From a bacterium UBP14_UBA6098 (GTDB lineage Bacteria; UBP14; UBA6098): a stretch of DNA of 64,000 bases. The first letter of the stretch is position 1, and each line of letters opens with the position of its first letter. The position numbers and the translations under genes were made by a program. Positions 3,703 through 56,972 of the stretch are shown one piece after another. A model generated the notes under the pieces. It had not been told where the DNA came from. It searched no databases and saw only the letters and a list, made by a program, of their open reading frames with translations. The stretch covers positions 16,637 to 80,636 of the forward strand of contig DIWU01000014.1 of NCBI GenBank assembly GCA_002428525.1. The letters run 5' to 3'.

Positions 3703-3737
3703 TCGGGCGCAAGGTTTCACAGAAAGTTTTTCAAAGA

Positions 3738-5303: not shown

Positions 5304-5392
5304 TAATCGCTAAACATACTTGCGAATTTTATGTTTAAACTATGGCTGTATAACCGCAAACAAAATAACTGCGGCTTTCTCGGGAGTTTCAT

Positions 5393-6061: not shown

Positions 6062-6073
6062 CGATAAAACGAC

Positions 6074-6484: not shown

Positions 6485-6487
6485 GCC

Positions 6488-7099
6488 GTGCGCCGCGAGC
6501 TGATCATTAGCTACGCAAGCCACGCTTTGCTCATTGTCATTTTTATGTTCATAAGTGCGTTTTCGAAGTCGAAGGAACCGCCGCAAAAGGTCTATTCCGT
6601 GAGGATCTTAGCCGCGCCACAGCCCGAGGTCGTTCAGCGGGTCGATCAAGCTCCGGAGGAGGAGCCGGAGCCGAAGGATGTTATCCAAGCAGTGCCGGAG
6701 CCAAAGGCAAAGCCGAAACCGAAACCAAAAACGGAACCAAAGCCTAAACAAGCCGAAAAACCGACCGTAAAACCAAAAGAAACAAGCACCTCCGGCGAGG
6801 GACATATCACAGTTGACGGCACCTTCAACGATGATTTTTATCTAAATCTAATATACATGAAGGTTTACAGAAATTGGATACCGCCTTCGACCTCGGCAGA
6901 GCTTAAAGCCACGGTTTTCTTTCGTATTCTGCCGAACGGCAATGTCGAAGGCGCAAAGGTGGAGGTGAGGAGCGGCATGTCATCCTACGACCAGTTGGCT
7001 CTGCGGACTGTTTTAGCCTCCGCGCCTTTCCCTGAGTTGCCCGATCATTATTCGAGCGACCACCTTGGGATCCATTTCGAGTTCGTCCATAACCCATGA
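6488..7099 (+). CDS. tolA: TolA-position protein with TonB-type C-terminal domain (proline/lysine-rich linker)
   Basis: GTG start, an N-terminal TM helix, a PEPKPKPKTEPKPK linker and a TonB_C-like C-terminus. Lies between tolR and tolB. Confidence 0.7.
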   Translation: MRRELIISYASHALLIVIFMFISAFSKSKEPPQKVYSVRILAAPQPEVVQRVDQAPEEEPEPKDVIQAVPEPKAKPKPKPKTEPKPKQAEKPTVKPKETSTSGEGHITVDGTFNDDFYLNLIYMKVYRNWIPPSTSAELKATVFFRILPNGNVEGAKVEVRSGMSSYDQLALRTVLASAPFPELPDHYSSDHLGIHFEFVHNP

Positions 7100-8412
7100 T
7101 GATTAAAAGATTTAAGATAATTTTACTCTTTGTTTTCTGCGCCGTGTGTTTTGCGCAGGGCGACGCCTATCTCAAGATTACCGATGTCGGTAGCGGCGTA
7201 GTCCGGCTGGCGGTTCCCAATATGGTTCCCCGACTCGAAGGCCTCGGCTCGGCTTGGGACACAACAATTACAACGCTTTCAGCCGTTCTGCGCGAGGATC
7301 TTCGATTTTCCCCCTTCATCGATGTCATCGATTCGTCGCTTTACCCCCAGAATGGAATCTCAGACCCAAGTAAAATCGATCCGTTCAAATGGAGCTCGGT
7401 TAACGCCCACGCCATTGTTCTCGGGCAGTTCGACACCGACGGCAGAAAGGTCTCGATCAAGATCGGGCTATATTCGGTGAACTCCCGTGCAAAGATTTTT
7501 AAGCAGGATTACCAGGCGAGCACAGTCCAAGCGAGGCGGCTTGTTCATCGAATCGCCGACGATATTCACAAGGCCCTCACCGGCGAAGAGGGCGTCGCGC
7601 AGACGCAGATAGCCTTCGTTTCGACTCGAGCCGGCGAGAACAAGGATATCTATATCTGCGATTACGACGGCTTTTCACCGCGAAGAATCACCGATTCCCG
7701 CTCGACGGTGCTTTCGCCGGACTGGTCTCCCGGCGGCGATAGGCTGAGCTATACAAGTTACAAAAACGACAATCCCGACCTCTATGTCTTTGATATATAT
7801 AAAGATAGGGAAGTCGTTCTCGCGAGCCACAGCGGTCCGAATCTCACCGGCAGTTGGTCACCCGACGGCAGAAGCATTTGCTATTCTCGAATCGCGGATT
7901 CCAACTCCGAACTCTATCTGCTCGATGTCCGCACCGGCGATGAAACGAGGCTCACATACACGCCTCTTTCAATCGAGAACTCACCGAGTTTTTCCCCGAC
8001 CGGAAGGGAGATCGTCTTCACCTCCGACAGAAGCGGAACTCCGCAAATCTATATCATGGATGTCCTCGGAACGCATTGCAGGAGGGTCACTTACGAGGGC
8101 AACTACAACGACGGCGCCGACTGGTCGCCTCGAGGCGATAAGATTTGCTATACTTCGAGGACGGATCAGGGCTTCCAAATTGCAGTGATCAATGTTGCTT
8201 ATGGCGACCCTGTTTACATTACGAGCGTTGGAAATAATGAGAACCCATATTGGGCGCCGGATGGCTATCATATTGTTTTCACAAGCAATCGAACGGGCAA
8301 GTATCAGCTCTACACAATGAACTGGGACGGCTCGGATGTCCGCAGAATAACGAACTCAGGAGCAAACACAGCGCCGGCTTGGTCGCCTCGATACCGCTGG
8401 TCGTTCGATTAG
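7096..8412 (+). CDS. tolB: Tol-Pal system beta-propeller protein TolB
   Basis: Signal peptide, an N-terminal TolB domain and repeated WSPDG / SPDGR propeller blades. Confidence 0.9.
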   Translation: MMIKRFKIILLFVFCAVCFAQGDAYLKITDVGSGVVRLAVPNMVPRLEGLGSAWDTTITTLSAVLREDLRFSPFIDVIDSSLYPQNGISDPSKIDPFKWSSVNAHAIVLGQFDTDGRKVSIKIGLYSVNSRAKIFKQDYQASTVQARRLVHRIADDIHKALTGEEGVAQTQIAFVSTRAGENKDIYICDYDGFSPRRITDSRSTVLSPDWSPGGDRLSYTSYKNDNPDLYVFDIYKDREVVLASHSGPNLTGSWSPDGRSICYSRIADSNSELYLLDVRTGDETRLTYTPLSIENSPSFSPTGREIVFTSDRSGTPQIYIMDVLGTHCRRVTYEGNYNDGADWSPRGDKICYTSRTDQGFQIAVINVAYGDPVYITSVGNNENPYWAPDGYHIVFTSNRTGKYQLYTMNWDGSDVRRITNSGANTAPAWSPRYRWSFD

Positions 8413-34404: not shown

Positions 34405-35700
34405 TTAAGCCTGATGCCTGATAATATTGCGCGAGAGCACAGCCTCCGGGGATCCGACGGCGCTTCGATCGGCCTGAGCCTGAAAAACCTCGAGCGCGAT
34501 CGGAACAATATTAGGATCGAACTGAGTGCCGCATCCTTTCTTGATCTGATCGAGCGCAACCTCTACAGGCAAGGCCTTTCGATAGGGCCTGTCCGTGCGC
34601 ATCGCGTCCCAAGCGTCGCATATCGCGATAATCCTTGCCCAAAGAGGAATCTCCTCGCCGGCAATATTGTCTGGGTATCCCTTGCCATCCCACCTCTCGT
34701 GGTGGTGACGGATACCCTTGTCATACCCCGGCAAAAAGCGCAGGCTGGCCACAAGCTCCGCACCGATAACCGGATGCTGGCGCATTATATGCCATTCGCC
34801 CTCGTCCAGAGAACTCTCCTTAAGAAGGATCGAATCGCGAATACCGACCTTACCAATATCGTGCAGAAGAGCGGCCTCATAAATCGCCTGAGCATCCTCC
34901 TCGAGGAAACCGAGCTTCTCGGCTATCTTCAAAGTATTGACCGCCACCTCGTGCGAATGCTTAGCGGTGTATGAATCTCGGGCGTCGATCATCTTGGCCA
35001 TGGAAAAAACCATATCCCGGACAGTATCGAGATACTTCTTCTGATTGCGCATGAAAACAAAAACAACCAACAAAAGCAAAACAAAGACTGAAGTCATCAG
35101 ATAGCCCGAATTTGCGAATATATACGAACCGACCATCCCCCAAATATAGAGCGGCGGGACGCTGAAGAGATAGGGCTTCAGCTGTTTGAAAAGACCGCGC
35201 ATCTTACGAACACCGGCGAATGAAAGCGTGGCGTAGGAGCAGACCCTATCGACCATCCATACGATGAGGCCGGCGGAGAACGCCGCGACAATATCGCGCG
35301 CCCCACCCGCAAGACCGGGCAGTGCGCCGAAAAGATCGTAATAGACCAACGAAGCGACAAAGAAATCGATAACCCCCACCGAGGTAAGGACTAACCGCCG
35401 AAAAACCGCATCGCCGGTGAATACTATTTGTATCACCATTCCAACTAAAAAGATCGATGCGGCGAAGGCGGGGCCATAGGTCAAAAGGGCCGCGAAACCT
35501 ATAGCATCGTTGAGGGCCATGATATTATTCCCGCCGATATCGATGCGAAGGAAGGAGCCGGCAGATATCAATAGCGCGAAGAAGGCAAATGGGGCAACAT
35601 TATCAAACAGCGGTTCCCAATCCGCGGTCAGCCCCAAGGCTATCGCCACGATGAAGAAAACAGCGGACAGAATATAATATTTCGCCGGCGATGATTTCAT
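34405..35700 (-). CDS. membrane-anchored HD-GYP domain protein (putative c-di-GMP phosphodiesterase)
   Basis: N-terminal polytopic membrane region. C-terminal HD-GYP motifs: HSHEVA, HDIGKVGI, HHERWDGKGYPD. Confidence 0.8.
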   Translation of the reverse strand: MKSSPAKYYILSAVFFIVAIALGLTADWEPLFDNVAPFAFFALLISAGSFLRIDIGGNNIMALNDAIGFAALLTYGPAFAASIFLVGMVIQIVFTGDAVFRRLVLTSVGVIDFFVASLVYYDLFGALPGLAGGARDIVAAFSAGLIVWMVDRVCSYATLSFAGVRKMRGLFKQLKPYLFSVPPLYIWGMVGSYIFANSGYLMTSVFVLLLLVVFVFMRNQKKYLDTVRDMVFSMAKMIDARDSYTAKHSHEVAVNTLKIAEKLGFLEEDAQAIYEAALLHDIGKVGIRDSILLKESSLDEGEWHIMRQHPVIGAELVASLRFLPGYDKGIRHHHERWDGKGYPDNIAGEEIPLWARIIAICDAWDAMRTDRPYRKALPVEVALDQIKKGCGTQFDPNIVPIALEVFQAQADRSAVGSPEAVLSRNIIRHQA

Positions 35701-36959: not shown

Positions 36960-37227
36960 GGGGATATAATGCCAATCCTTCGCCAAAATCGCAAGGCAAA
37001 AACTTCGGCGGGTATGTTTATCCGCTTCTCCGCAGGGATGGCCGACAATCGCCTTTCTGAAATATGGTATTTATCCGATTCTTATCAGGAAAATACTCAG
37101 AGTATAAGGGATTTTGAAGTCCGGTGTAAGATTTGCCCCGATTGAAGGAAGGCTTTTATTTTCTATACTATTAAATGGAAAACAAATATACAACTAACAT
37201 CATCCCCATGAGTCGGGCGGTTATGTT

Positions 37228-37764
37228 ATGCCTAAAGGAAATAGAAAAATAGCCGGTTTCTCGATGATCGAGGTCATGTCCGCGGTGCTTGTGCTGTCGG
37301 TCCTTGCGGCAATGTCTGTCATCAGTTTTCGCAAATCGATCAACCAACAAAAGCTAACCGGCGAGACCAATTCCGCGGCCTCGACACTCAAGTATATCGG
37401 CGCCGAAGCGCGAGTCAGCAAAACCAAGATCCGCGTCAGAGTCGATTTCGACAAGAATATAATTATCGGCTGGGTCGATAGCAATAAAAACAATCTTTAC
37501 GACACCTCCGAAAGAGTTATTGCACGCTTCGATTCTCCCTCCGGTGTCGATATTTACACTGGTTTCATCAACACTAAAAAAACAACTGGCTACGCCTATT
37601 TCAATTTTCTCCCCGACGGCAAGGCCTCCCTCGAAGCCACCCTCGTCATGCGGGGAACAGCGACGGGAATCATGAAGACTATCACTGTCAACCCCCAAAG
37701 CGGATGGGTCGAGGTTTTCGAGGGCGCGCCATCTGGCCTTGCGACCGGAGGTTCAAGTGCTTAG
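37228..37764 (+). CDS. prepilin-type N-terminal cleavage/methylation domain protein (minor pilin/pseudopilin, FimU/GspH-like)
   Basis: Class III signal G|FSMIEVM followed by a hydrophobic helix. First gene of a five-gene operon. Confidence 0.7.
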   Translation: MPKGNRKIAGFSMIEVMSAVLVLSVLAAMSVISFRKSINQQKLTGETNSAASTLKYIGAEARVSKTKIRVRVDFDKNIIIGWVDSNKNNLYDTSERVIARFDSPSGVDIYTGFINTKKTTGYAYFNFLPDGKASLEATLVMRGTATGIMKTITVNPQSGWVEVFEGAPSGLATGGSSA

Positions 37765-38152
37765 AATATACAAAAAAATCGCACGCGAAAACTCCGGTTT
37801 CACTATGCTCGAGGTGATGGTCGCAATCTCGATCACCGCGATCATTATGTCGTTCATCGGTATGTCTCTGGTCACCGCCGCGCGCATGAACACACTCAGC
37901 GAATCGCAGAACACAGCTATCAACCTCGCCGAGGAGAAGGTCGAACAGCTCCGAAGGTTCAGCTTCACAAATATTTCGAGCGGCGCGGACACGGTCGGCG
38001 AGTTCATCCGCGAATGGACTGTTATCGACAATATGGCCAAGCCGAGGATTAAGAATGTCGAGTTAAAGGTCAGCTGGCCGGATTCCAAAGACAATATTCA
38101 CGATGTCACGATTAACACTATCTTCTACCGCAATGCCTATCCATATAGATAA
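37739..38152 (+). CDS. prepilin-type minor pilin/pseudopilin (PilV/GspI-like)
   Basis: SG|FTMLEVMVAISITAII motif. The leader is long if the ATG at 37739 is used. An alternative GTG at 37757 gives a 14-aa leader. Confidence 0.65.
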   Translation: MRPEVQVLRIYKKIARENSGFTMLEVMVAISITAIIMSFIGMSLVTAARMNTLSESQNTAINLAEEKVEQLRRFSFTNISSGADTVGEFIREWTVIDNMAKPRIKNVELKVSWPDSKDNIHDVTINTIFYRNAYPYR

Positions 38153-39011
38153 TAAAGGCGTCACGCTCATCGAGCTTATGATAGCCATGGTCATCGGATC
38201 GATCATCATGGCCTCGCTTATCGGTATTATCTCAAGCCAACGCAAGGGATATATCACGCAACAAGCCCGCGCAGAGGCCGAAGAATCGGTCTCTCGCGTC
38301 CACGGCGAACTGCTCGACAAGATCCGCATGGCCGGCTATATGATACCAAACACCGTTCTAGCGATTACCCCCTACTACTCCGCAACCGGCTCCGACTCCA
38401 TACGCGTCGCGGGAAACTACGATAAATTCGCGGTGACAGCCGGACTGACTATCTCCGCGGGCGCGAGTTACTTTTTCGCCTACGATTCCGACGATTTTAA
38501 ATATACAAAAGGCATGAAGATCATGCTCGTCAGCCCTCCAGACGAGTTCGTCGATACATTCTGGGCTGAAGTCGATACCTTCTACCGCTTCACAATATTC
38601 ACAAAAAAATACCTTCAGATTAATCTGAAAAATATCATCCCGAAAACCTTCCCGATCGGAAGCAGAATAAGCACCTTCAATCATTACACTTTCAGGGTCG
38701 CACAAACAGTCTCAGGGGGCGACACAATTAAATACTTCGCAGTCCGCCCAAACAACCAGACAAGCCTCATCCGACTCGTCGATGGAGTTGACGATATCGC
38801 GATTTCCTATGAAACACGCACCGACACATTGAAAATGAACACCTTCCCCGCGAATTCACTCGAGTTCGTCTATGCCGTCAACCTCGATGTTCAGTCTCGA
38901 TCGAGGATCAAAGATAGAACCTATACCGACCCGATTTACAACGACCACTACCGGCGATCCCGACTCAACACGCAAATCGTAATACTGAATCTCGCGCTCG
39001 ACAAACGATAA
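38136..39011 (+). CDS. prepilin-type minor pilin/pseudopilin (PilW/GspJ-like)
   Basis: KG|VTLIELMIAMVIGSIIM N-terminus and a ~290-aa beta-rich body. Confidence 0.6.
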   Translation, partial: PIHIDNKGVTLIELMIAMVIGSIIMASLIGIISSQRKGYITQQARAEAEESVSRVHGELLDKIRMAGYMIPNTVLAITPYYSATGSDSIRVAGNYDKFAVTAGLTISAGASYFFAYDSDDFKYTKGMKIMLVSPPDEFVDTFWAEVDTFYRFTIFTKKYLQINLKNIIPKTFPIGSRISTFNHYTFRVAQTVSGGDTIKYFAVRPNNQTSLIRLVDGVDDIAISYETRTDTLKMNTFPANSLEFVYAVNLDVQSRSRIKDRTYTDPIYNDHYRRSRLNTQIVILNLALDKR

Positions 39012-39020
39012 GGGGGCACC

Positions 39021-39446
39021 TTGCAGGGAAACCGAAAAAATATCATTCTCGGAGTGATTTCGATTATCTGCCTCGTCGCGCTGGTAATCATAATTTTCCG
39101 TAGCGGAAAGCCGGTCGAGGTCGAATACACCGGCCGCCAGATCGGAACCGAAGCCTCCGCCGAGAGCGAGCTTTCCGAGGAACAAGTCAAGGCCCTCGCC
39201 GCGAAACTCCCCCCCGAAGAACCCGCGACGCGCAAGCCCTCTGCGCTTTACCCCGACGAAAGACCAAACCCCAAGACGGCCAATAGCGAAATAGCCAAAA
39301 TCCAAGCCGAGGCGGTTAAAAAAAACAGAGAATCGGCGATGGCCTCAAGAAACACATCGACCCAAAGTCTTAGCCCCGAAGAAAAAGCAAGGCTCGATCA
39401 AATCCGCGAAATGCGCAAAAAACAAGCCGAAAAGAAAAAAAGATAA
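39021..39446 (+). CDS. hypothetical small membrane-anchored, Lys/Glu-rich protein (pilin-operon member)
   Basis: One N-terminal TM helix (ILGVISIICLVALVIIIF) followed by a charged low-complexity tail. Confidence 0.4.
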   Translation: MQGNRKNIILGVISIICLVALVIIIFRSGKPVEVEYTGRQIGTEASAESELSEEQVKALAAKLPPEEPATRKPSALYPDERPNPKTANSEIAKIQAEAVKKNRESAMASRNTSTQSLSPEEKARLDQIREMRKKQAEKKKR

Positions 39447-39458
39447 TCGGGTGAAATT

Positions 39459-41195
39459 ATGAAGTCATTCAGAAAAACCATCGGAAACAACCGCGGTAGC
39501 GTGATGCTTATCGTCATTATGGTGGTTATCATCATCTCGATTATCTCCCTCTTGGTCCTCGCCGCAAGCCAATATAACACAAAACTTACCGCGAACGAAC
39601 GTCACCGCAAACGCGCCTTCTATATCGCCGAATCCGGCGCGATGATGGCCATCGACTCCCTGAACCGAAACGACCAAATCAATGGCGTTATCTACACAAA
39701 CGAACCTATGGATGGTGGAACATTCTCGGTAGAGGTTTACGATTCATCGAATTTCGCTTGGCTTGCACAAGATGAACGCTTGATCCGCTCCTTAGGCGTC
39801 TCCCGAAATGCGGTGCGTCGGCTCGAGTATGTCGTGAAGTTCGCGGTTATGGGATACGACCAAATACCCGGACCGCTTTATATCGAAGCCCCGACTCCCC
39901 ATTTTGCAGGCAATGTTTTCACAGTTCAAGGCGGAGACCACCACTGGGGCGATGCAATTTATAATATCCCCGTCCCCCCGGGCGACCACCGCCGGTCGGT
40001 TGCCACGATCCACGATTCATCGAGCATTATTTCCGCAATAGGCTCCCATAGCGATCAAATTTTCACTGTAGATGCCGCAGGGAATTATATAGAGGGCTCT
40101 GTCTGGCCTAACCGCGATACCCTCGACCTCGAGGCCCTCGCCGCGGCCTTCGCCGGCGAGCACGGCGAGCTTGCCGATACTATCGGATGGGTCATAGGCG
40201 CTTTCCCGAACGACTACAAAGTCAGCTACCTCGATGGAGATTTTACCATCGCCGGCGGTGGCCATACACCCTCTGGTGGTAGTGGACTATACACATGCCC
40301 GAATTGCGAGGGAACAGGCATTATCAACTGCTGGGGGTGTCAAGGAACCGGTTACGAATGGCTGGCTCGCGATTGCCCTAACTGCCTCGGCACAGGGAAA
40401 GTGGGTTGTGCTACTTGCGACAGCTTGGGCTATTTCACTTGCCCCGACTGCGGAGGCACCGGCGGCACTCCGGTCGCGTGCGATAGTTGCCTCGGCTCGG
40501 GAATCTACGGCTGTCTTGTTTGCGATGGAACCGGCGTTTGCCCGATCTGCAATGGAACTGGCATTTCGAAAACAGCTGGCGGTAACTATTGGTCTTGCTA
40601 CCGTTGCGGCGACGGCCAGAAAAACGGTGTCGTCGGAACAGGGCTTTGCCCCGATTGCGGCGGAACGGGTGGAATCCCTTGCCCCTATTGTAGCGGAACC
40701 GGTGTCGATCCATCCTCCGGTTGTGCGACCTGCGGCGGAACAGGGATTATTCCCTGTTCGGATTGCGCAGGCACAGGGAAAATCGACTGTCCGGTTTGCG
40801 GAGGAACGGGAGGAATCGGCTCGGACAGAATATGTCATGTTTGCAACGGAACCGGCACACAAGTTTGCCCATGGTGCATCGGCTCGGGCCTTGTGAGTGA
40901 AGAGGGCGGTGGTCACGGAGCGAAGGGCACTCTCGGAGCGGGCGTCCTCGTCGTCACGGGGAATCTCCATATCTCCGGTCAGTTCGAATTCTCGGGCCTC
41001 ATCATAGTTCTCGGCGAGGTCTCGGTAGATATCACCGGCGGCGGCCAAGGAGTGCATATATGGGGCTCTCTGCTCTGTAAGTCGGTCGATTTCAAAATAG
41101 CCGGAAACGCCGATATCTGCTGGTGCAGAGAAGCCCTCGAGATGCTTCCTACCAGACCCGCGGGTTTCCAAGTCATGTCCGTGATGGAGTATTAG
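39459..41195 (+). CDS. PilX_N/GspK-like pilus-tip-type protein with array of 16 CxxC motifs, 13 of them DnaJ-type CxxCxG[TS]G (putative Zn/disulfide module)
   Basis: N-terminus NNRGSVMLIVIMVVIIISIISLLVLAASQYNTKLTANERHRKRAFYIAESGAMMA matches the PilX N-terminal domain pattern. Residues ~275-480 carry 16 CxxC motifs, 13 of which are followed by xG[TS]G (CPNCEGTG, CWGCQGTG, CPDCGGTG and others). Confidence 0.7.
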   Translation: MKSFRKTIGNNRGSVMLIVIMVVIIISIISLLVLAASQYNTKLTANERHRKRAFYIAESGAMMAIDSLNRNDQINGVIYTNEPMDGGTFSVEVYDSSNFAWLAQDERLIRSLGVSRNAVRRLEYVVKFAVMGYDQIPGPLYIEAPTPHFAGNVFTVQGGDHHWGDAIYNIPVPPGDHRRSVATIHDSSSIISAIGSHSDQIFTVDAAGNYIEGSVWPNRDTLDLEALAAAFAGEHGELADTIGWVIGAFPNDYKVSYLDGDFTIAGGGHTPSGGSGLYTCPNCEGTGIINCWGCQGTGYEWLARDCPNCLGTGKVGCATCDSLGYFTCPDCGGTGGTPVACDSCLGSGIYGCLVCDGTGVCPICNGTGISKTAGGNYWSCYRCGDGQKNGVVGTGLCPDCGGTGGIPCPYCSGTGVDPSSGCATCGGTGIIPCSDCAGTGKIDCPVCGGTGGIGSDRICHVCNGTGTQVCPWCIGSGLVSEEGGGHGAKGTLGAGVLVVTGNLHISGQFEFSGLIIVLGEVSVDITGGGQGVHIWGSLLCKSVDFKIAGNADICWCREALEMLPTRPAGFQVMSVMEY

Positions 41196-41252
41196 GAAGG
41201 TTATAGGGGTTAGGTTATGGGTGCTGGGTTATAGGTTATAGGCATTACCCTA

Positions 41253-41281
41253 GGGGCGTATTGAATACGCCCTTTTTATTG
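41253..41281 (+). terminator. Rho-independent terminator (first hairpin of array, after pilin operon)
   Basis: GGGCGTAT-TGAA-ATACGCCC followed by CTTTTTATT. Confidence 0.6.
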
Positions 41282-48841: not shown

Positions 48842-51800
48842 CTATCTCGCGATATGGACAGTCCCCTTGCAGAGAACCTCGCCGCCGCGGATAACGAGAT
48901 AGACATAGATGCCCTTCGGGAGGGGATTTCCGGCGAGGTCTCGGCCGTCCCAGCTCGAGATATCCTCGAGCTTCGCGGCCAATCTTCCGCGGGCGTCGTA
49001 AATCTCGATCTTTGCGCCCTCGAGCGACATCCCCGGATAGGTAAATTTGACCTCGTCGTTCACGAGATCGCTGTTGGGGGAGAAGGGATTCGGCCGCGCG
49101 GAGCAGTCCTTCGAGACGATATCGAGGCTCGCGCAGGCGGAGTTGTTGGCCTCGTTGGATTCGAAGATATTGTCGTAGGCGTCGAGGGCGAGACAGATCG
49201 GCGCGCCGGAAAGAATATTCGGCTCGAGGCTCGAGATGACGAGACTTTCGCGAATCGTGTCGCCGGGCGCGAGGCCGATATACTCGGTCGATTTGAGAAC
49301 CGAAGCGCCCGCGCGAATCTCCACGAAGGTGCCGGGCAAAACCCCTGTGCCGCTATAGAAACCGATTCCCTCGAAGACGAACGAGTCGCCCTCGGAAACC
49401 GTCGAGGGCGAGAGCGAGACGAACTCGCCGGAGGTCCATAGATCGGGGAGAAGCTCGACATTGTAGAGCCAGCAGGAATCGAGGGCGTTAGGCTCGCAGA
49501 GATCGGGCGAGTCGAGGATTGAATCGAGGCAAACAAGCACCTCCTCGCCGGGGACGAACGACGACTCGGGGATTAGGTTCAGCTCGGCGCCGTTCCAGCT
49601 GAGATAGCCGTCGCCGGGGAAATATCGACTGCCGTTGACGATAAGGCTCAGCGAGGATTCCGCGATGCCGGAACCGCTATCGGCGAGAAACACCGATATT
49701 GTGATGCCCGCGCCGATTAGGCTTCCCGGGGCGGGCACTATCGAGACAACCGCCGGCGGCGAGTAATCGACGAGGTAGGTGACGCAAACCGCGCTGTCGG
49801 AGGGGTTCCCGAGCATATCGGACGCGCGGACGCAGACAGTTATTGTATCGCCGTCCAAGGGGCCGCCCGCGGGCATGTAAAATAGGCTGTCGCCGCGGAA
49901 AACCCATTCGGTCGAGGCCTCGCCGTTCACAGTAAGCCCGATGCTCGCGGTATCGATCCCCTCGGGGTCGAAAAGCGTGAGGGCCGCGCCCTGCCCGAGG
50001 CACGCGCTCCAAAGCGAATCCGCCGCCGGCTCGACGACCGCGATCTCCGGCCCGCCGGTGACGATGAAGAACTCCCAGCAGAGCAAATCGGCGTTCGCCC
50101 CGCAGTAGAGCGCTAAATCCGCCGCTCGAACACACACCGTGACCGTGTCGCCGCCGAGCCAGAACATCCCGATGTCCGAGGGCTCGAAGCCAAGGGTATC
50201 GTCGCTAAGACTTGCGCCGACAACGGCACCGTCAATTGTCATCTCGATAGAGTCGCTATCGAGGCCGGCGATCTCGTCCCAAAGGCGAAGCCGAATACTC
50301 GGCGCGATTTCCGCGATCGCCCCTGTGGGCGTAGGGTCTGCGAAGACCGGCGGCGCGAGATCAACCACAAAAACGACGCAAACCGTATCCTCGATATGAA
50401 CCCCAAAGCTATCCGCGGCATCGACGAGGCAAAGCTCGATCGTATCGCCGTTTATCCATGGCGAAATCGGTGTGAAAAATAGGGAGTCCCCCGCAAAGCT
50501 AATCTCCGCGCTATGCGAGGTGAAATCGGAGGTGTCGTTCAAAACGACATGTATATAATCGCGCGTGGCGGCGCCGCTGAAAAACCAGACCGCTGTTTGA
50601 AGCGAACAGCTCGTCGCCGCGCCGTCGAGGGGATAAATTGCCTCGGCCGAAAGCGCGCTCAACTCGATATAGAACTCGCAACAAGCGAGCGTGTCGTTTT
50701 CGCCGGTGCAGAAATCCGCGGAATCGGCCGTATAAACGCAATATCGGACCGTGTCGCCGTCGCGCCAAACCGTGTCGATAATCGCCGGCGTGATCGCGGT
50801 TGTGTCCGAGGTGATCGGGAGGCTGTCTGCGCCGAGTATTAGCCATGTTCGGCCGAAATAGACCGGGGAAAGATCATCGGCGAGCGCAAAGATAATCCCG
50901 GCAAGGCTATCGCGGAGGACGCTCGAGCACGGCGGCTCGAGGAAAACGACCTCCGGCGGTGACAGGTCGATTGTGAAATCCGCGCAGACCGCCGCGGGAA
51001 GGGCGTTTCCGAAAAGGTCGTAAACCGAATCGAGACATACCGAATGCGCGCCCTCGACCCAATCCGACAGCGGGGTGAAAACCAGAACGCCCGTGAAATC
51101 TAACTCCAAGGCCGGATCGAGCGCGGAGAAAACCGCGCCGTCCGCGGAAACCCATATCCTCGTAGAGTCGATGCCGGTTTCGCCGTCCGAAAGGAACCAT
51201 TCGACCCGCTGATCCGCGCAGGCCGAACCCGCGCCGATAAAGGGCGAGAGTAAAATTGCCTCGGGCGGCACAGTGTCGGCGATTACAAAACTCCAGCTCG
51301 TGTCGAGGCGGTTTGGTTCGCAGTAATCGACTATGTCCCATATAGTTAGCTCGACGAGAACGGTGTCGCCATAGGCGAAGCTGTCCGGTGAGAGGCCGAT
51401 ATCAAAGACAATAGTATCGCCGGAAAGCGAGGTGTAGGGCGAACCCGCGCCGCCGTCGATCCCGCCGGCGGAAAGCGCGAAGCTTGTGAAATCGACGCCT
51501 CCGAGCAAGTCGTTCGGCAGAATCTTTATAATCGGGCTTCTCGAGCTTGTCGAGGGGAAGGGCGAAGCGAATTCCACGACCGGCGGCGAAAGGTCGATTA
51601 TCATCGTGTCGCCGATTGCCGCCGTGAAAGAGTCTCCGCTCTCATCGACCAGCAAAAGCAGATGGAACGGCACTATCTCGCCGTCATCGAAGCAAACCGA
51701 GCCATCAGCGTTCCAAACGAGCGATTCGCCGACTGCAAAGTATTGAAAAACCGAGTCCTCCGCCGTCCAAACCTCTTCGCCGACAAAAAGGGTGATCAGT

Positions 51801-54232
51801 GAGTCGATAATTGGTATTTCGGTACCAATATACCATATTATTTCGGGGCATTCGCAGGATGAAATAATTCTACCGTCTCCGTCAATATCTGTCGGGGCTA
51901 TGACATAAGCGGAAAAATCGCCGATCTCGACGAAGACATCGAAACACCGCTCGGAGATATTAGGGCCGCAATAGTCCGCGCAATTATCTTCCGCAAAGAC
52001 ACAGGCCGAAAGGCTGTCGCCATTTAGAAGGCTATCGAGGAAAACAGCCGAGGTCGAAAACGCGGTCGTGTCGTATAAGCCATTGCGGTATATGACGATA
52101 GAGTCTATCGCCGAGATCCCGCATAACGAGTCGATGGCCTCGAAGGCAAGCTCGAACTCCGATTCCGTGGCGGTTTCCGGCGAGGTCATCGAGATCGCCG
52201 GCTCGTTGTAATCGGCGATGAAGCGGCTCGAAACAACGCTAACCAACGGAGTCCCATGAACATCCTCCGCGGCGAGCAGGCTGAAATGCATCGTATCGCC
52301 GCTTTCCCAGCAAGGCGCGGTGGGCGTGAATACAAGTAGCGACTCGCCATCCCAGCTAAGTTCCGGCGTAGCAATATCATAGACTATCCCCTCGACCTCG
52401 AAGCGTATCGACGAGGTGTCGATTCCGTCCTCGTCGTGAATCGCGAGGATTATCGGCTGGCAATCGCAGGCGCTGACCGCAAAGCCGCTACTGTCTAAGT
52501 CCACCGGCTCGATGATCCGCGCGGTCGGGCCGCCGGAGAACTCGACATAGACCCACCAGCAGGTGTCCGGCGCGGTGTTCGGCGGGCAGTAGTCGTAACC
52601 GGGCCAATCGGCGATATCGATCACGCAGATGCGCAGGCTGTCGCCGTTTTCGGCGTAGTAGAAATCAACAAAAGTCGAGCGAACAAAGAAATAAATCCCT
52701 AAAAGTGAGTCTTCGCGCCAATGTTCAAGGGCAAATAGGCTCGTAAAGTGGGGGCAGATCGAGTCGATGACCTCGGCGCCGAGGGTGAAGCTCACCGGAT
52801 AATCCTCGAAAACAGTCCCCGGCGGAGGGGAAAAGCCGCCGAGCACGACCGGCGGGTCGAGATCGACGAGGAAGCTACATTCGATGGGCTTCTCGATCGG
52901 GCAACCTATATCGCTGTAAGCTGAAACGAGAGTGATTATCACTGTGTCCCAGCTCGCAAAGGCCATCGGAATCGCGGAGGGGTCGAAATCGAGGCGCGAG
53001 GCGCCGTCCCAAATAAGCGCGGGGTTTGGGGCGTGTATTATAGTGTCCAGAACGCCGCCTCGGCCGGAGACCTGAATTCGCAGGGTGAAGGTCGCCGGGT
53101 CGATCGCATGGCCGCTCGTGTCGAAAACCAGCCACGAAACGCCCTGATCGGCGCAGGTTGTGATATAGCCGCAGGAATCGGGATAGACGATCTGCGCCAT
53201 CGGGCCGGCGGCGCAGGCGAAGGTTCTAAATGAACAGGAGTCAAAGCCCCAATTGCAGAAGCCGTCGCGGACAGCGATGCGCGCCCATGCCGAATCGCAG
53301 GAGACCGGCGGCACAGGCCAAGTGAAAACAGTGTCGGTTAGGATAATAGTGTCGATTTCGCCGCAGAAGCCGATAAATAAAGAGCATTCGTCATGGGACC
53401 AGAAACTGTCGTCGATAGTCCAATGTAAAACCAAGGTATCGCCGTAGAAGACTGTGTCCGCAGGGCAAGCGATCGAAACGACCGGCGCGCGGGAGTCGAG
53501 ACAACCTATTGAAATTAAAGGCGTTATCGAATCGCCAACGATTCGCGTTTGAAAATTACAGCCCTCGAAATCGGGGAAATCGTCGGAAAGTAACCATTGG
53601 AAGCAGTGAATGCCGGTATCTGAGACAGTTCCGAGGTGGCCGAAATCTCCGATGAGCGAGGACATCGGCACCCCCCAACCGGCGCCGCCGTCGGAGGAGG
53701 CCGAAATACCGATATTCCACGGCGGCTCGCAGGTCGATTCGAGGCGGTAGCAAATCTCGACGATATTAATCGAGTCGCAGTCGGCTTCCTCGACGAACCA
53801 TAGGCTGTCGAAGCGGCTCGAACAGGCCGGCTCGATGAAGAATCGCCAGCATGTGTCGAGCTCGTTCGGCGGGCAGGTGCATGCGAGGGTGTCGAAGATC
53901 CGGTCGATAGCGCGGATGCATACCTCGACAGTGTCGCCGGGGGAGAAATCGCCGGGGATTAACGGAGTGGCCGGGTAATCGGTCGAATCGGTGCCGTTCA
54001 CGATGACGGTTGTGAGGACGCTGTCGCCCCAAACGCCCGCGCCGCGGTCGTCGAGGGCGAAAATGATTGTGACGAAGGTATCCGCTAAAGTCGTGTCCGC
54101 GGGCGGAAAGGCCGAGCCGGCGGCGATATAGGGCGGCGAATGGTCGATAATAAACGAGCATTCGAGGGCGCCGAGGCCGGCTGAGCACAGCGCCGCGATC
54201 ACGAAAATATATGCCGCAAAGCGCCTATTCAT
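48842..54232 (-). CDS. giant (1796 aa) secreted adhesin-like protein with repeated beta/Ig-like domains and T9SS/FlgD-Ig-type C-terminal sorting domain
   Basis: Signal peptide, a long Asp/Ser/Thr/Gly-rich repetitive body, and a C-terminus RPNPFSPNSDLVNDEVKFTYP...IEIYDARGRLAAKL...WDGRDLAGNPLPKGIYVYL. Confidence 0.75.
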   Translation of the reverse strand: MNRRFAAYIFVIAALCSAGLGALECSFIIDHSPPYIAAGSAFPPADTTLADTFVTIIFALDDRGAGVWGDSVLTTVIVNGTDSTDYPATPLIPGDFSPGDTVEVCIRAIDRIFDTLACTCPPNELDTCWRFFIEPACSSRFDSLWFVEEADCDSINIVEICYRLESTCEPPWNIGISASSDGGAGWGVPMSSLIGDFGHLGTVSDTGIHCFQWLLSDDFPDFEGCNFQTRIVGDSITPLISIGCLDSRAPVVSIACPADTVFYGDTLVLHWTIDDSFWSHDECSLFIGFCGEIDTIILTDTVFTWPVPPVSCDSAWARIAVRDGFCNWGFDSCSFRTFACAAGPMAQIVYPDSCGYITTCADQGVSWLVFDTSGHAIDPATFTLRIQVSGRGGVLDTIIHAPNPALIWDGASRLDFDPSAIPMAFASWDTVIITLVSAYSDIGCPIEKPIECSFLVDLDPPVVLGGFSPPPGTVFEDYPVSFTLGAEVIDSICPHFTSLFALEHWREDSLLGIYFFVRSTFVDFYYAENGDSLRICVIDIADWPGYDYCPPNTAPDTCWWVYVEFSGGPTARIIEPVDLDSSGFAVSACDCQPIILAIHDEDGIDTSSIRFEVEGIVYDIATPELSWDGESLLVFTPTAPCWESGDTMHFSLLAAEDVHGTPLVSVVSSRFIADYNEPAISMTSPETATESEFELAFEAIDSLCGISAIDSIVIYRNGLYDTTAFSTSAVFLDSLLNGDSLSACVFAEDNCADYCGPNISERCFDVFVEIGDFSAYVIAPTDIDGDGRIISSCECPEIIWYIGTEIPIIDSLITLFVGEEVWTAEDSVFQYFAVGESLVWNADGSVCFDDGEIVPFHLLLLVDESGDSFTAAIGDTMIIDLSPPVVEFASPFPSTSSRSPIIKILPNDLLGGVDFTSFALSAGGIDGGAGSPYTSLSGDTIVFDIGLSPDSFAYGDTVLVELTIWDIVDYCEPNRLDTSWSFVIADTVPPEAILLSPFIGAGSACADQRVEWFLSDGETGIDSTRIWVSADGAVFSALDPALELDFTGVLVFTPLSDWVEGAHSVCLDSVYDLFGNALPAAVCADFTIDLSPPEVVFLEPPCSSVLRDSLAGIIFALADDLSPVYFGRTWLILGADSLPITSDTTAITPAIIDTVWRDGDTVRYCVYTADSADFCTGENDTLACCEFYIELSALSAEAIYPLDGAATSCSLQTAVWFFSGAATRDYIHVVLNDTSDFTSHSAEISFAGDSLFFTPISPWINGDTIELCLVDAADSFGVHIEDTVCVVFVVDLAPPVFADPTPTGAIAEIAPSIRLRLWDEIAGLDSDSIEMTIDGAVVGASLSDDTLGFEPSDIGMFWLGGDTVTVCVRAADLALYCGANADLLCWEFFIVTGGPEIAVVEPAADSLWSACLGQGAALTLFDPEGIDTASIGLTVNGEASTEWVFRGDSLFYMPAGGPLDGDTITVCVRASDMLGNPSDSAVCVTYLVDYSPPAVVSIVPAPGSLIGAGITISVFLADSGSGIAESSLSLIVNGSRYFPGDGYLSWNGAELNLIPESSFVPGEEVLVCLDSILDSPDLCEPNALDSCWLYNVELLPDLWTSGEFVSLSPSTVSEGDSFVFEGIGFYSGTGVLPGTFVEIRAGASVLKSTEYIGLAPGDTIRESLVISSLEPNILSGAPICLALDAYDNIFESNEANNSACASLDIVSKDCSARPNPFSPNSDLVNDEVKFTYPGMSLEGAKIEIYDARGRLAAKLEDISSWDGRDLAGNPLPKGIYVYLVIRGGEVLCKGTVHIAR

Positions 54233-56972
54233 CGGCTGTTCCCCTCGTTTCGGTGATAACGACTACAACCCTGCGGTTGATCGTTCGGCCCTCGGGAAGT
54301 TCCTCGGCCCCTATCAGCCTCTTCGACAGCTTGCCATCCTCCCAAAACTCGATGGTATATGGCTCCGAGGCGGCATAACCCCTGCTCGAGATACTGACCT
54401 CGTTCTCGGCCATCCAGCGGTCGAGTGCCTCGCGGCTATCGAGGCCGAGAAGGCCCTTCATATAGGCGAAAAGCCTCGTCTCGACGGCCTTGGCCCTCTG
54501 CTCGGAAAGCTCGATATTTCGGCGATGTCCGCCGATCTCGTCTGTATGTCCTTGAAGCTCGGCGGAGATAGACACGCCGTCCTGCGCGCCCTTTTCGACG
54601 ATATGCCGCGCAACCCATTCGAGCCGATCCTCGAGGAAGCTCGACTGCGCCGAAGGCCCGTCGAATATGAATTGCACGAGAAGCAGTCTGTCGATTCGCT
54701 CCTCGCGAAGCATAACCTCCGCGCCGATCTCATTTTCGGTGCAAAGTTTCGAGGCCTGCCCGAGCTCGTCGAGCGCGGAGAGGCACAGGGAAAAGCGTTT
54801 GCCGAAGGGGATAATTCCGCCCTCGCGGTCTTTCCAATCCCAGCGAAGGGCCTTTTTCACAGGGCCTTTGCCGGTGGCGAGCTCGTGGAGGGTTCGGCCG
54901 GCCTCGTCCACGAGAGACAGGCGCCATTCGGAGATGCCCGCCTCGGAGGCCGCGGAGAGCGAGATCACGCAGTCGGGAAGCTCGCTCGGTTGGTAGCTCA
55001 GCGCCGAATGAACCTCTCGCGGCTTGAAGGCGATGGCGTCGCCGGTTAAGAAGATGAGCGCTGAGTCGGCGGGGATACTATCGTCGGCGCCGGCGAGGAC
55101 TCGATCGGAGTAGTATTCGGGGAGGTTCGCGAGCAGGAGTTCCTTGATCTTGAGCGCGCGGAGGATCGCCGCATCCAAGGCGTTGCCGGCTGAGGAGGCG
55201 CGAACGACGAGCATAGCCATCGGGTTCGCCCGAAGCGCTGTGATAACTGAATCTGCGATGATAGCGGCATCTGCGGTCGAGAATTCATCGGCTCGGGGCC
55301 GAAACTCGAGCCGGGGCATAACGACCGAGATCTCGGCCCTTCGGTTCTCGCTATCGACAAGTCGTTGATACTCTTGATATTGGCTTCGTCGTGGGATTCG
55401 CTGGCGATCGGGGGCATCAGCGCCAATTTTAACCCTATCGGCAGAGCCGGGCGCGAGCCTCGACAGCGCCGACCTCACGGCAGATGCTCTATTTTCGGCA
55501 ATCTCACGCAAGCCCGGCTCGGAAAGCTCGTCGAAATAGCCGTTGACGATAAAGACTGCATCGGGGTTACTGGTCAGCCTTTCGGCGAGCAATTCGAGAA
55601 GGGGGTCGAACCGCGGGTCAATCTGAGAGGAGGCGGCCTCGAAGAATACCGCCGGCACGATCGATTCGTCCTGATTGATATACTTAGCCGCGTCGATTTT
55701 TGCGGCCTTCGGGGAGGCCTCGATCGCGAGCTGTGGCGGCGCGAAGGCAATAGCGACCGCGCTCGAGCTATTATTGTCCTCGCTCGACTCGACGAATTCG
55801 TCCTTAGGATCGACGTTGACCTCGAAGCTGTAAACCCCCGCGGAATCGAAGGTGAAGGGGAGGCGGATCAGCGAGGGTTCCCCCTCGACTATCGAAATCT
55901 TCGTGAACGGCTCGAGTTCGAGGCTGTTCAAACTCAAGCCCACGAGGACATCGGAGAAATTCCCGCCCTCGGCAACGAGGCGGATCGTGAGGAAACCGGT
56001 ATCGCCCAAGGCGTATCTTTCCCTGTCGAGGGAGAGCGCCGCTGAGAGGTCGGGCAGTTCGAGTTTACGCTCGAAGAAGCCCGTGAGGGCGAGGTTGTGT
56101 CCGCTCGAGGCTTGTCCCAAATCGCCGCGATGGAGTTCGAAGCTATAATCGAATCGTAGCGGGATCCCCCAAGGGAATCCGAGGGCGATCCCGAAGGATA
56201 TATCGCGCTCGTCGAAGGCGGCGTTCAGCTTCAAGACCTCGGCAATAGGGGGGGTTTCATAGCCGAGTTTGTAGGCGATCTCGCTTCCATCCGGCGCGGA
56301 GGGGGAAAGGCCGGCCTCTGCGAAGAATAGACCGAGATTTCGCGGGTTGAATGAGGCGGTCGCGCCGAATGATCTGCCGATATTGGATTCGAGATTGTCC
56401 CTGAGGGCAAGATCGGGATCGAGGAGGTTTTCGGCTGATAAGCCAATAAGGAGTTCGTTCACCGGGGAGAAGGCAAGGCCGAGGTCCATTGAAAAGGCGG
56501 CCTTCGAGTATCCCTCCGAGAAAACCGGATCGTCGGGGAAATCCTCCGAGCCGAGATCGAATTCGCCCCTTTGAAAGGAATCGTAGAAAAGACGGCCTCT
56601 CGCGCCGATCGCGGCCCTCCCGAGCCGCCTCGACAGGACGAGGCCGAGGTTGTTCATCGAGTAGATATTCGATTGGAGCAAGCGCCATTCCGCGCCGGCC
56701 TCGAAGGCCCCGAGGCCTCGCCGGTATTCCGCGCCGGCGGAGCCGATATAATCGCCGATTCCCGCGAAGGGTGCCGAATATGCCAATGTGAAAAAATCGA
56801 TACCGGCGAGCGAGGCCGTCGCGGGATTGCCCGCGGAATAGACCTCCGTTCCGCAGAACGGGCGAAGGCCGCCGAGCCCCTCGAGCGCCGAAAGGTCTGT
56901 CGAGCCGATCAATGCGGGGGCAAGGCAAGCTAAGAAAAGAATACATCTCATCGCTCGTCGGAGTTTATACAT
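54225..56972 (-). CDS. large outer-membrane protein with putative N-terminal beta-barrel and two OmpA-like peptidoglycan-binding domains
   Basis: Signal peptide followed by Gly/aromatic-rich beta-strand-like sequence. Two OmpA_C-like segments: NGYFDELSEPG...ENRASAVRSAL and GHTDEIGGHRRNIELSEQRAKAV. Overlaps the giant gene's start by 8 nt. Confidence 0.65.
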   Translation of the reverse strand: MYKLRRAMRCILFLACLAPALIGSTDLSALEGLGGLRPFCGTEVYSAGNPATASLAGIDFFTLAYSAPFAGIGDYIGSAGAEYRRGLGAFEAGAEWRLLQSNIYSMNNLGLVLSRRLGRAAIGARGRLFYDSFQRGEFDLGSEDFPDDPVFSEGYSKAAFSMDLGLAFSPVNELLIGLSAENLLDPDLALRDNLESNIGRSFGATASFNPRNLGLFFAEAGLSPSAPDGSEIAYKLGYETPPIAEVLKLNAAFDERDISFGIALGFPWGIPLRFDYSFELHRGDLGQASSGHNLALTGFFERKLELPDLSAALSLDRERYALGDTGFLTIRLVAEGGNFSDVLVGLSLNSLELEPFTKISIVEGEPSLIRLPFTFDSAGVYSFEVNVDPKDEFVESSEDNNSSSAVAIAFAPPQLAIEASPKAAKIDAAKYINQDESIVPAVFFEAASSQIDPRFDPLLELLAERLTSNPDAVFIVNGYFDELSEPGLREIAENRASAVRSALSRLAPGSADRVKIGADAPDRQRIPRRSQYQEYQRLVDSENRRAEISVVMPRLEFRPRADEFSTADAAIIADSVITALRANPMAMLVVRASSAGNALDAAILRALKIKELLLANLPEYYSDRVLAGADDSIPADSALIFLTGDAIAFKPREVHSALSYQPSELPDCVISLSAASEAGISEWRLSLVDEAGRTLHELATGKGPVKKALRWDWKDREGGIIPFGKRFSLCLSALDELGQASKLCTENEIGAEVMLREERIDRLLLVQFIFDGPSAQSSFLEDRLEWVARHIVEKGAQDGVSISAELQGHTDEIGGHRRNIELSEQRAKAVETRLFAYMKGLLGLDSREALDRWMAENEVSISSRGYAASEPYTIEFWEDGKLSKRLIGAEELPEGRTINRRVVVVITETRGTADE

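Follow-up and report, generated by a model that had tools for sequence, protein, structure and literature searches.

What a type IV filament touches is decided by the minor pilins at its tip, and the known tip modules include lectins, vWA domains, beta-solenoids and PilY1 propellers. Modular pilins, defined as a pilin module combined with at least one extra module that is not specific to pilus biology, have been collected in a census of 264 architectures for which the N_methyl signature was required (PMC8179133). PilB-vWA and PilC-lectin of Streptococcus sanguinis share the design described here, a pilin carrier with a grafted tip module, but their module is appended, whereas ours lies inside a second module (PMC8179133). 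PilX_N-type proteins lack the N_methyl signature demanded by the census, and the text portion of its supplement mentions no DnaJ-type module. ComZ, the competence-pilus tip pilin of Thermus thermophilus (PDB 6qvi), carries a beta-solenoid on a GspK-like module and has been shown to bind DNA; a GspK-like pilin that bears a beta-solenoid can sit only at the tip (PMC6561018). In the secretion pseudopilins GspK/XcpX (PDB 3ci0_K, 5vtm_X) the pilin module carries an alpha-helical insertion domain, and PilX is a core minor pilin of type IVa pili that is encoded with FimT/PilV/PilW-like partners. The DnaJ cysteine-rich domain (CR), BSD2 and the C-terminal domain of GRXCR1/2 contain four CxxC-type motifs and two Zn (one Zn in anti-TRAP) and reside in the cytoplasm or the plastid stroma. 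In the DnaJ CR and BSD2 the four motifs build two Zn(Cys)4 centres within a hairpin unit shaped like a V or a crescent.

The window, which is the whole stretch of 64,000 nucleotides analysed, comes from an uncultured bacterium that is probably related to Zixibacteria and encodes a protein with features of several of these systems. The ORF at 39459..41195 (+) yields a product of 578 aa with 35 Cys, and we conclude with high confidence that it belongs to the GspK/PilX/ComZ class of tip minor pilins, is modular and bears a Cys array inserted in its head. The features of the locus are as follows.

37142..37169 (+): sigma-70-like promoter match, 9/12 consensus positions, weak; the site count in the region is no higher than in shuffled sequence
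37228..37764 (+): GspH/FimT-like minor pilin, 178 aa, G|FSMIE; GspH 32.1 bits (cut-off 21), N_methyl 23.4 bits
37739..38152 (+): PilV/GspI-like minor pilin, G|FTMLE; N_methyl 28.6 bits
38103..39011 (+): large minor pilin in the putative PilW/GspJ position, 302 aa, G|VTLIE; N_methyl 33.9 bits
39021..39446 (+): small 141-aa protein; TM helix at the N-terminus, charged tail of low complexity
39459..41195 (+): probable tip pilin, the Cys-array gene, last in the operon
39459..39863 (+): pilin module, residues 1-135, with a class-III-like leader, G|SVMLI, a long alpha1 helix and a four-stranded sheet
39864..40274 (+): beta-solenoid part 1 ("Mid"), residues 136-272, conserved PGPLYIE...F.GN.F.V.G.DH
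40296..40889 (+): inserted Cys array, residues 280-477, 16 CxxC, 14 CxxCxG[TS]G
40920..41195 (+): beta-solenoid part 2, residues 488-578, with terminal strand and stop, GAGVLVV.GNLHISGQFEF.GLIIVLG...GGGQG.HIWG...GNADI
41252..41274 (+): terminator-like hairpin at the operon end, 10-bp stem and then a T run; lies 57 nt past the stop; weak

The operon consists of five genes, its minor-pilin genes overlapping or lying 9-12 nt apart, and the minor-pilin cluster is conserved in the loci L001 and L004-L009. The GspH/FimT-like gene is present in all orthologous loci. The PilV/GspI-like gene, whose TTG start was assigned mechanically so that the true start may be later, matches both TIGR02523 PilV and GspI under their cut-offs and retains 44-67% identity across the orthologous loci; for the large minor pilin the range is 42-55%. 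Profile searches returned no significant family match for the small protein at 39021..39446, which has a counterpart of 35-41% identity in L004-L006, while L001 holds a 96-aa gene at that place. The four co-encoded minor pilins, the third a putative PilW/GspJ and the last without Glu5, correspond to a core minor-pilin set. The preliminary description had placed the array gene at the end of a minor-pilin operon, and the three upstream prepilin motifs together with G|SVMLI in the array protein support this. A PilY1 gene is absent from the operon and none adjoins the array gene; among the ten largest ORFs of the window that were scanned, none encodes pilus machinery.

The protein begins with a hydrophobic N-terminus containing ANERHRKRAFYIAESGA, and a short Gly-ended leader, a hydrophobic alpha1 helix and an alpha-beta pilin fold identify it as a type IV pilin or pseudopilin. 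As in PilX and GspK, Glu5 is absent from G|SVMLI. The PilX_N domain (PF14341) that had been proposed for it holds for the family, with matches at E<=0.01 in 15/16 members (best 3.2e-11) and a precomputed match in 14 homologues, and is marginal for the window protein alone, where 23.0 bits fall 2.5 bits short of the gathering cut-off of 25.5. The suggested membership of the GspK family had to be abandoned: model NF037980, whose cut-off is 130, gives 20.6 bits and covers only the N-terminal helix (residues 12-84), and the T2SSK Pfam model has no match in the window protein. In superpositions with GspK/XcpX, only the pilin module (99 residues) aligns, and the alpha-helical insertion domain is replaced by the solenoid and the Cys array. 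With PilX the protein shares the N-terminal signature and the operon partners, but classical PilX is far smaller, the window protein adds two modules, and no PilY1 neighbour occurs here.

An AF2 model built from a 47-sequence alignment that included array-less relatives reached a mean pLDDT of 81.7 and a pTM of 0.60 and resolved three parts; an earlier model from 16 sequences had a pLDDT of 61, and Foldseek against the PDB then gave nothing significant. Within the later model the head is an ice-binding-protein-type beta-solenoid on a GspK-like pilin module, as in ComZ, a solenoid fold that adhesins match as well. ComZ, however, has no Cys array, searches detected no sequence similarity between the two proteins, and the window contains neither ComEC nor a competence context. 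By analogy with ComZ, the window protein would be located at the filament tip. The only low-confidence internal segments of the model, residues 269-274 and 483-489, flank the array. In its nearest array-less relative (P0055, 38% identical in the N-terminal and 58% in the C-terminal part, no Cys array), encoded in a homologous minor-pilin cluster, Mid ends at residue 270 and the C-terminal part starts at 271. Because the two flanking domains adjoin each other in P0055, the array of the window protein is an insertion. The C-terminal solenoid domain is also the last domain of numerous PilX-like proteins without Cys, 320-440 aa long. With its pilin module (1-135), solenoid and DnaJ-type array, the protein is a modular pilin in the sense defined above. 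The preliminary description overlooked both the insertion of the array into a ComZ-like solenoid and the arrays in other tip-pilin lineages.

The motif count gives 16 CxxC units with 32 Cys within residues 280-473 (nt 40296-40889, +), starting at residues 280, 291, 306, 317, 328, 341, 352, 361, 380, 397, 408, 422, 433, 444, 459 and 470. The number of units had thus been described correctly, while the CxxCxG[TS]G form occurs in 14/16 rather than the 13 originally counted (the list given there also adds up to 14), and the pitch, put at 10-14 residues, measures 9-19 with a mode of 11 (8/15 spacings). The array is acidic (computed pI 4.3; K+R 7 vs D+E 13). Compared with the DnaJ CR and BSD2, it has 16 motifs instead of four, mostly at an 11-residue pitch, is predicted to be extracytoplasmic and lacks J-domain and client-binding domains. 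Its profile matches DnaJ CR (1exk, E 9e-5) and BSD2 (4e-4) in the PDB, and the AF2 model yields a fold match to BSD2, a geometry that may merely reflect recognition of the motif. DnaJ_CXXCXGXG (PF00684) scores 24.0 bits on the window protein, below the gathering cut-off of 32.7, and reaches E<=0.01 in 10/16 orthologues; the array resembles the DnaJ cysteine-rich domain without belonging to it at the curated threshold. Cytochrome-like haem binding was rejected, no CxxCH being present, and so was a rubredoxin-type knuckle (CxxCG): the motif Gly stands at +2, not +1, and the knuckles are therefore of the DnaJ type. Fe may be the metal of these knuckles instead of Zn.

A search for homologues retrieved 16 full-length proteins of 57-100% identity, all of them with the 16 units in register. 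The family is rare, with one 50%-identity cluster and six species genomes, and its sources include a Guaymas Basin MAG and MAG co-assemblies. In the alignment of the 16 homologues, 31/32 array Cys are invariant. The Cys/Gly skeleton is kept throughout, the remaining array residues being conserved at 0.60 compared with 0.70-0.82 in the scaffold; the C-terminal solenoid part (residues 488-578) is the best-conserved section of the whole protein (mean column identity 0.82). Exceptions are a 10-residue insertion between the Cys of unit 10 in one orthologue and CxxxC in unit 13 of two others. The array appears to be a fixed fold and not a recent tandem expansion, because all 16 units are kept in register down to 57% identity. 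Repetitive DNA and expansion by tandem duplication had been proposed earlier, and neither is upheld: Tandem Repeats Finder detected no tandem array, and the direct repeats are 60-88% identical over 24-30 nt, since coding for C-P-x-C-x-G-T-G gives as much. With copy number constant at 16 in all orthologues, recent tandem duplication in the lineage of the window protein was discarded. That the Cys-rich segment might be a frameshift, an assembly chimera or a non-coding repeat was suggested by long shadow ORFs in other frames (40287-41171, -, 294 aa; 40234-40896, +, 220 aa). The chance of this is negligible, as 16 independent metagenome or MAG homologues share frame, length and all 16 units and records from several sources, including a 172-kb contig, contain the identical 578-aa protein, which refutes an artefact.

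Arrays of this kind also occur in other pilins. In a second lineage (P0058, P0059, P0060, P0063, P0064, P0066, P0069, P0094, P0017 and P0032), 2-25 CxxC occupy a different solenoid loop from that of the window protein; in the two loci examined, those of P0017 and P0064, prepilin genes come immediately before the array gene, and P0202, 59% identical to P0064, is devoid of the array. A third architecture, found in Planctomycetota (P0138, P0205), places 15 and 28 CxxC before a DUF7305/ice-binding-like adhesive solenoid. Pilin-borne arrays are acidic, with pI 4.1-4.9 in 11/12 computed and P0017 (pI 8.4) as the exception. CxxCxGxG array proteins without a pilin module number 125 among the matches listed, with 8-34 CxxC each and a dominant 11-residue pitch; they include P0068, P0072, P0081 and P0088, which have the same repeat and pitch as the window protein. 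Basic pI values of 8.0-8.9 prevail among six sampled arrays of this non-pilin group, one of which has pI 6.2. A crude hydrophobicity heuristic, to which we give no weight as evidence, predicted mixed localisation, with an N-terminal hydrophobic segment in 55 of the non-pilin proteins, a TM-like segment elsewhere in 25 and neither in 43.

We propose that the pilin module (1-135) would seat the protein with the three upstream prepilins in a priming complex, which would bring it to the filament tip, whether of a type IV pilus or of a related structure. The ~210-residue module of 16 knuckles is inserted in a solenoid loop (residues ~272 to ~488) on two flexible linkers. Judging from motif chemistry and the resemblance to BSD2 and DnaJ, every two knuckles might supply the four Cys that hold one Zn(II), for a maximum of 8 sites, and this pairing would make the module compact, cross-braced, acidic and slim enough for passage through the secretin. 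The module could then be the part of the filament that meets its ligand, as an adhesin or receptor, a role suggested because of its position, the lack of PilY1 in the operon and the repeated independent grafting. Taken as a whole, this reading, in which a modular tip pilin presents a ligand-binding knuckle module probably stabilised by Zn, seems to us evenly balanced between right and wrong. Among its parts, binding of Zn rather than formation of disulfides is slightly favoured on the motif, and a ligand-binding role of the array is put forward tentatively, at somewhat less than even confidence.

The same tip pilin might instead carry a metal-free array, with up to 16 disulfides serving mechanical or protease stability. 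Many type IV pilins contain DsbA-dependent disulfides, and extracytoplasmic Zn(Cys)4 sites are, to our knowledge, uncommon. The periplasm, in which pilin heads fold, may oxidise CxxC pairs; the invariance of the array Cys is equally explained by disulfides, and the insertion in unit 10 and the CxxxC in unit 13 sit more easily with them than with tight knuckles. Yet Gly is conserved together with the Cys at positions +2 and +4 from the second Cys, a DnaJ/BSD2 signature for which a disulfide knot has no obvious use, and the profile and fold matches of the array are Zn-binding domains. If the source habitats, Guaymas Basin among them, are anoxic, exported thiolates could stay reduced. We regard the disulfide array as rather improbable.

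Greater doubt attaches to a competence-pilus tip receptor like ComZ in which the array contributes to DNA capture, a role we consider distinctly unlikely. Its head has the fold class of ComZ, a DNA binder, zinc knuckles often bind nucleic acids, and in both Planctomycetota loci examined a ComEC-type gene (DUF4131 + Competence + Lactamase_B) adjoins the array pilin. These ComEC genes are 62% identical, however, and the two linked loci count as one observation because they are orthologous; tblastn found no ComEC homologue in the 64-kb window or in the orthologous and lineage-2 loci examined, and the acidity of the pilin-borne arrays also speaks against DNA capture. It is very unlikely, in our view, that the protein, as an analogue of GspK, caps a T2SS-like pseudopilus that is not extruded, in which case its periplasmic array would act on cargo as a DnaJ-CR/BSD2-like holdase or thiol-disulfide oxidoreductase. 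The first operon gene does score as GspH, and plant DnaJ-like CXXCXGXG proteins feature in reviews of oxidative folding and PSII assembly, those of the thylakoid with zinc fingers having disulfide-isomerase activity. Against such a cap, the protein fails the GspK sequence model and has no GspK alpha-domain, the family signature is PilX_N, the head is a ComZ/IBP-type solenoid whose fold adhesins also match, and the ten largest ORFs of the window scanned contain no T2SS genes.

A tip pilin with an inserted DnaJ-type array, and with similar blocks at two other positions in related tip pilins, was found nowhere in the literature searched, which covered few subscription journals; no paper there combines a minor pilin with CXXCXGXG or DnaJ-like zinc with a pilus, so that the novelty claimed in the preliminary description stands within that scope. 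More speculatively, and in our opinion improbably, DnaJ-type knuckle arrays could represent an unrecognised pilus-tip organelle of anoxic habitats, a slender Zn- or Fe-braced acidic rod of 2-28 copies that persists outside the cell, contacts minerals or metal sulfides, a partner cell or, in competence pili, DNA, and has been grafted by selection at least three times into differing loops of ComZ-like tip pilins (Zixibacteria-related, Planctomycetota and other uncultured bacteria).

Since the organisms are uncultured, function would have to be studied in heterologous hosts, and in practical terms the tip pilin with its DnaJ-type array is well suited to expression and to the analysis of bound metal. 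The three insertion sites, together with presence or absence of the array and the variation in copy number, constitute a natural experiment on the role of the module, and the comparison points to a large, apparently uncharacterised bacterial class of CxxCxGxG repeat proteins with an 11-residue pitch. If the proposed reading is true, the pilus tip would gain a new kind of chemistry, with as many as eight putative Zn(Cys)4 knuckles, and a classic cytoplasmic zinc-finger motif would be seen in rare extracellular use.

A genuine ORF lies at 39459-41195 (+); its 578-aa product has 35 Cys, 32 of which form 16 CxxC units (residues 280-473, nt 40296-40889) with a start-to-start spacing of 9-19 residues and a mode of 11. 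Fourteen of these units have the form CxxCxG[TS]G; the preliminary description had counted 13, although its own list sums to 14. The frame kept among homologues is the + frame of 39459-41195, and the two long ORFs overlapping it are shadow ORFs:

40287-41171 (-), shadow ORF of 294 aa, overlapping the Cys array in another frame
40234-40896 (+), shadow ORF of 220 aa, overlapping the Cys array in another frame

They are apparently a by-product of the periodic Gly/Cys-rich codons, and an automatic gene caller could mis-call either of them. An artefactual origin of the Cys-rich segment was considered and is refuted.

A word-indexed search yielded 16 full-length homologues of the window protein at 57-100% identity, one named after candidate division Zixibacteria and one named "PilX N-terminal domain-containing pilus assembly protein"; the species-genome collection contributed six loci, whose sources include one MAG assigned to Zixiibacteriota and another from the Guaymas Basin. 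As to whether the array is conserved or variable in copy number among homologues, a check proposed earlier, the family alignment shows conservation: 16 units in all orthologues, all in register and with zero copy-number change. Of the 32 Cys in the array, 31 are invariant, as are most Gly of the motifs; unit 13 is CxxxC in two sequences, and unit 10 of one sequence carries an internal 10-residue insertion. Conservation of the array residues other than Cys and Gly is 0.60, versus 0.70-0.82 for the scaffold. Since the units are in register, with nearly all their Cys and most of their motif Gly invariant, the array represents an old fixed fold, neither recently expanded nor variable. Tandem Repeats Finder detected no repeat in the array DNA of the window protein, and the direct repeats present there (24-30 nt, 60-88% identity) are explained by the common coding of C-P-x-C-x-G-T-G, which yields such similarity. 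The proposed expansion by tandem duplication therefore fails for this lineage.

PilX_N matches 15 of the 16 family members, the sixteenth being without its N-terminus; DnaJ_CXXCXGXG matches 10 members, BSD2_CRD 6 and GRXCR1-2_C 5. The window protein itself scores just under the gathering scores of both PilX_N and DnaJ_CXXCXGXG; its array resembles the DnaJ CR domain, yet remains under the curated threshold. The GspK model reached only 20.6 bits (cut-off 130), over the N-terminal helix only. Judged by sequence, the protein is a PilX_N member at the family level and not a GspK member, and the original identification of a PilX_N-type pilin with a DnaJ-type array stands. Against the PDB, the family sequence profile found DnaJ CR (1exk) at E 9e-5 and BSD2 at E 4e-4.

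In an exhaustive profile search over 1.84 billion representatives, a single full-length cluster came first, followed by P0055, a protein of 364 aa (350 bits) without a Cys array, which is 38% identical to the window protein over residues 10-280 and 58% over residues 493-578. According to sub-profiles, residue 270 is the last of its Mid region (the first part of the beta-solenoid head) and residue 271 the first of the C-terminal domain. The scaffold of pilin, Mid and C-terminal domain is common to dozens more Cys-free proteins of 320-440 aa. The window protein is thus modular in build, and its array is an inserted, conserved DnaJ-type module in the solenoid head. This insertion, and its recurrence in other tip-pilin lineages, had been missed in the preliminary description. 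The start of the solenoid (residues ~136-168, window 39864-39960) carries the motif PGPLYIE..F.GN.F.V.G.DH, conserved in 47 diverse relatives, with G158 and D160 at least 90% conserved; it may be a metal site, a turn or an active site. Insertions favour the loop right behind this motif, a hot spot occupied by Cys arrays in a second lineage and by large Cys-free inserts in P0084, P0123, P0177 and P0192 (proteins of up to 1089 aa).

AF2 gave a pLDDT of 61 with the 16 orthologues alone, and a pLDDT of 81.7 and a pTM of 0.60 with 47 sequences (33 array-less relatives added, two truncated orthologues left out). Residues 2-131 were modelled as a long alpha1 helix and a four-stranded sheet, and internal pLDDT values below 50 occur only at 269-274 and 483-489, exactly either side of the array. 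The structure prediction proposed earlier is in line with a modular build, with low-confidence linkers flanking the array. The local geometry given by AF2 depends on the motif. ComZ is reported to be a GspK-like pilin into whose fold a beta-solenoid (nearest to an ice-binding protein) is inserted, to fit the tip position only because of this bulk, and to bind DNA (PMC6561018). From the model and this description, the window protein has the body plan of ComZ with one further module. In modular pilins of Streptococcus sanguinis, a pilin carrier displays a module at the tip (PMC8179133); by analogy with these, ComZ and GspK, the window protein, a GspK/PilX/ComZ-class minor pilin, would work alike.

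Arrays were found in two further groups of tip pilins:

Lineage 2, same scaffold: P0058, P0059, P0060, P0063, P0064, P0066, P0069, P0094, P0017, P0032
Architecture 3, Planctomycetota MAGs: P0138, P0205; PilX-like pilin module, 15 or 28 CxxC, DUF7305 / "ice-binding-like adhesive" solenoid

In lineage 2 the CxxC(xGxG) arrays (2, 4, 4, 4, 4, 14, 14, 14, 23 and 25 CxxC) lie at a site other than that of the window protein, ~30 residues into Mid, equivalent to the loop near window-protein residue 170, and the remaining Mid follows. P0202, 59% identical to P0064, has a Gly/Ser linker alone at this site. The P0017 and P0064 genes are both directly downstream of prepilin genes, and the architecture-3 genes also follow prepilin genes. 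A DnaJ-type array on any pilin was not found described in the open-access literature.

Among the matches listed, at least 125 non-pilin bacterial proteins (within the range P0067-P0200) carry 8-34 CxxC(xGxG) at a dominant 11-residue pitch, and 5239 library proteins match the profile at E<=0.001. Many of the non-pilin array proteins have signal-peptide-like or TM segments, their predicted localisation is mixed, and Pfam covers them through DnaJ_CXXCXGXG or BSD2_CRD only; no account of them as a family was found. Behind the CxxCxGxG array of the 593-aa protein P0203 comes a stretch (CLSGGTLITMADGS...) that, by eye, resembles a Hint/intein-type domain. The non-pilin arrays sampled (n=6) are mostly basic (pI 8.0-8.9, one 6.2); pilin-borne arrays are acidic in 11 of 12 computed (pI 4.1-4.9), the exception being P0017 (pI 8.4).

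The minor-pilin operon comprises five genes (37228-41195), whose neighbours overlap or sit 9-12 nt apart:

Gene 1, GspH/FimT-like prepilin (Pfam GspH 32 bits, N_methyl), cleavage motif G|FSMIE
Gene 2, PilV/GspI-like prepilin, cleavage motif G|FTMLE
Gene 3, 302-aa prepilin in the PilW/GspJ position, cleavage motif G|VTLIE
Gene 4, 39021-39446 (+), 141 aa, a single TM helix at the N-terminus, then a long tail that is charged and of low complexity
Gene 5, 39459-41195 (+), Cys-array pilin, motif G|SVMLI without Glu5
41252-41274, terminator-like hairpin 3' of the operon

Genes 1-3 have canonical prepilin cleavage motifs; Glu5 is absent from PilX and GspK too. The gene-4 product has no family match; it has counterparts at 35-41% identity in the retrieved loci L004-L006, a 96-aa gene takes its position in L001, and it may be a fifth, so far uncharacterised component of the minor-pilin set. 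All orthologous loci retrieved contain this operon. In L008 (Guaymas MAG; 1663-3402 vs 3536-5236) the three prepilin genes are divergent, on the strand opposite the tip-pilin gene; the P0055 cluster (L011) begins with the tip-pilin gene, and its homologues of these three prepilins are ordered differently. Gene order in the cluster is therefore flexible. The operon lacks a PilY1 gene, and the window's ten largest ORFs yielded no pilus machinery genes; the operon's flanks, read from translations, appear to be housekeeping-type genes (tgt-, ClpC- and pta-like). On the other strand, 1.5 kb upstream, a 431-aa multi-TM protein (34405-35700, -) has an HD-GYP-type motif (HHERWDGKGYP) in its translation and may be a c-di-GMP phosphodiesterase. 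The window also encodes a protein of 1796 aa that bears a type IX secretion signal of the CHU_C kind (48842-54232, -), adjoined by a 915-aa OmpA-family protein (54225-56972, -), and in L001 a 1293-aa VWA and CHU_C protein (3715-7596) is directly upstream of the operon; such T9SS cargo fits an FCB-group organism.

We propose that pairs of knuckles each bind Zn, giving up to 8 putative sites, since conservation of the motif Gly goes along with that of the Cys, and the profile matches are to zinc domains. A weakness is that the periplasm, in which a pilin head folds, may allow disulfides to form, and an array built as a metal-free disulfide-laced rod is a less likely alternative. ComEC-type genes (DUF4131, Competence and Lactamase_B) immediately adjoin the architecture-3 pilins (L012 2120-4648, L013 8811-11369), which counts as one observation because the loci are orthologous (ComEC 62% identical), and suggests a Planctomycetota competence pilus with a tip bearing 15-28 CxxC knuckles. 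That the window protein is likewise a ComZ-like DNA receptor seems doubtful, since ComEC is adjacent in the Planctomycetota lineage only and the array is acidic; we regard as more improbable still a pseudopilus cap that stays in the periplasm and acts as a holdase or oxidoreductase. The array module would be the ligand-contacting end of the filament, be it a type IV pilus or a T2SS-like pseudopilus, because its carrier is a tip-class pilin, a PilY1 gene is absent and such arrays have been grafted repeatedly.
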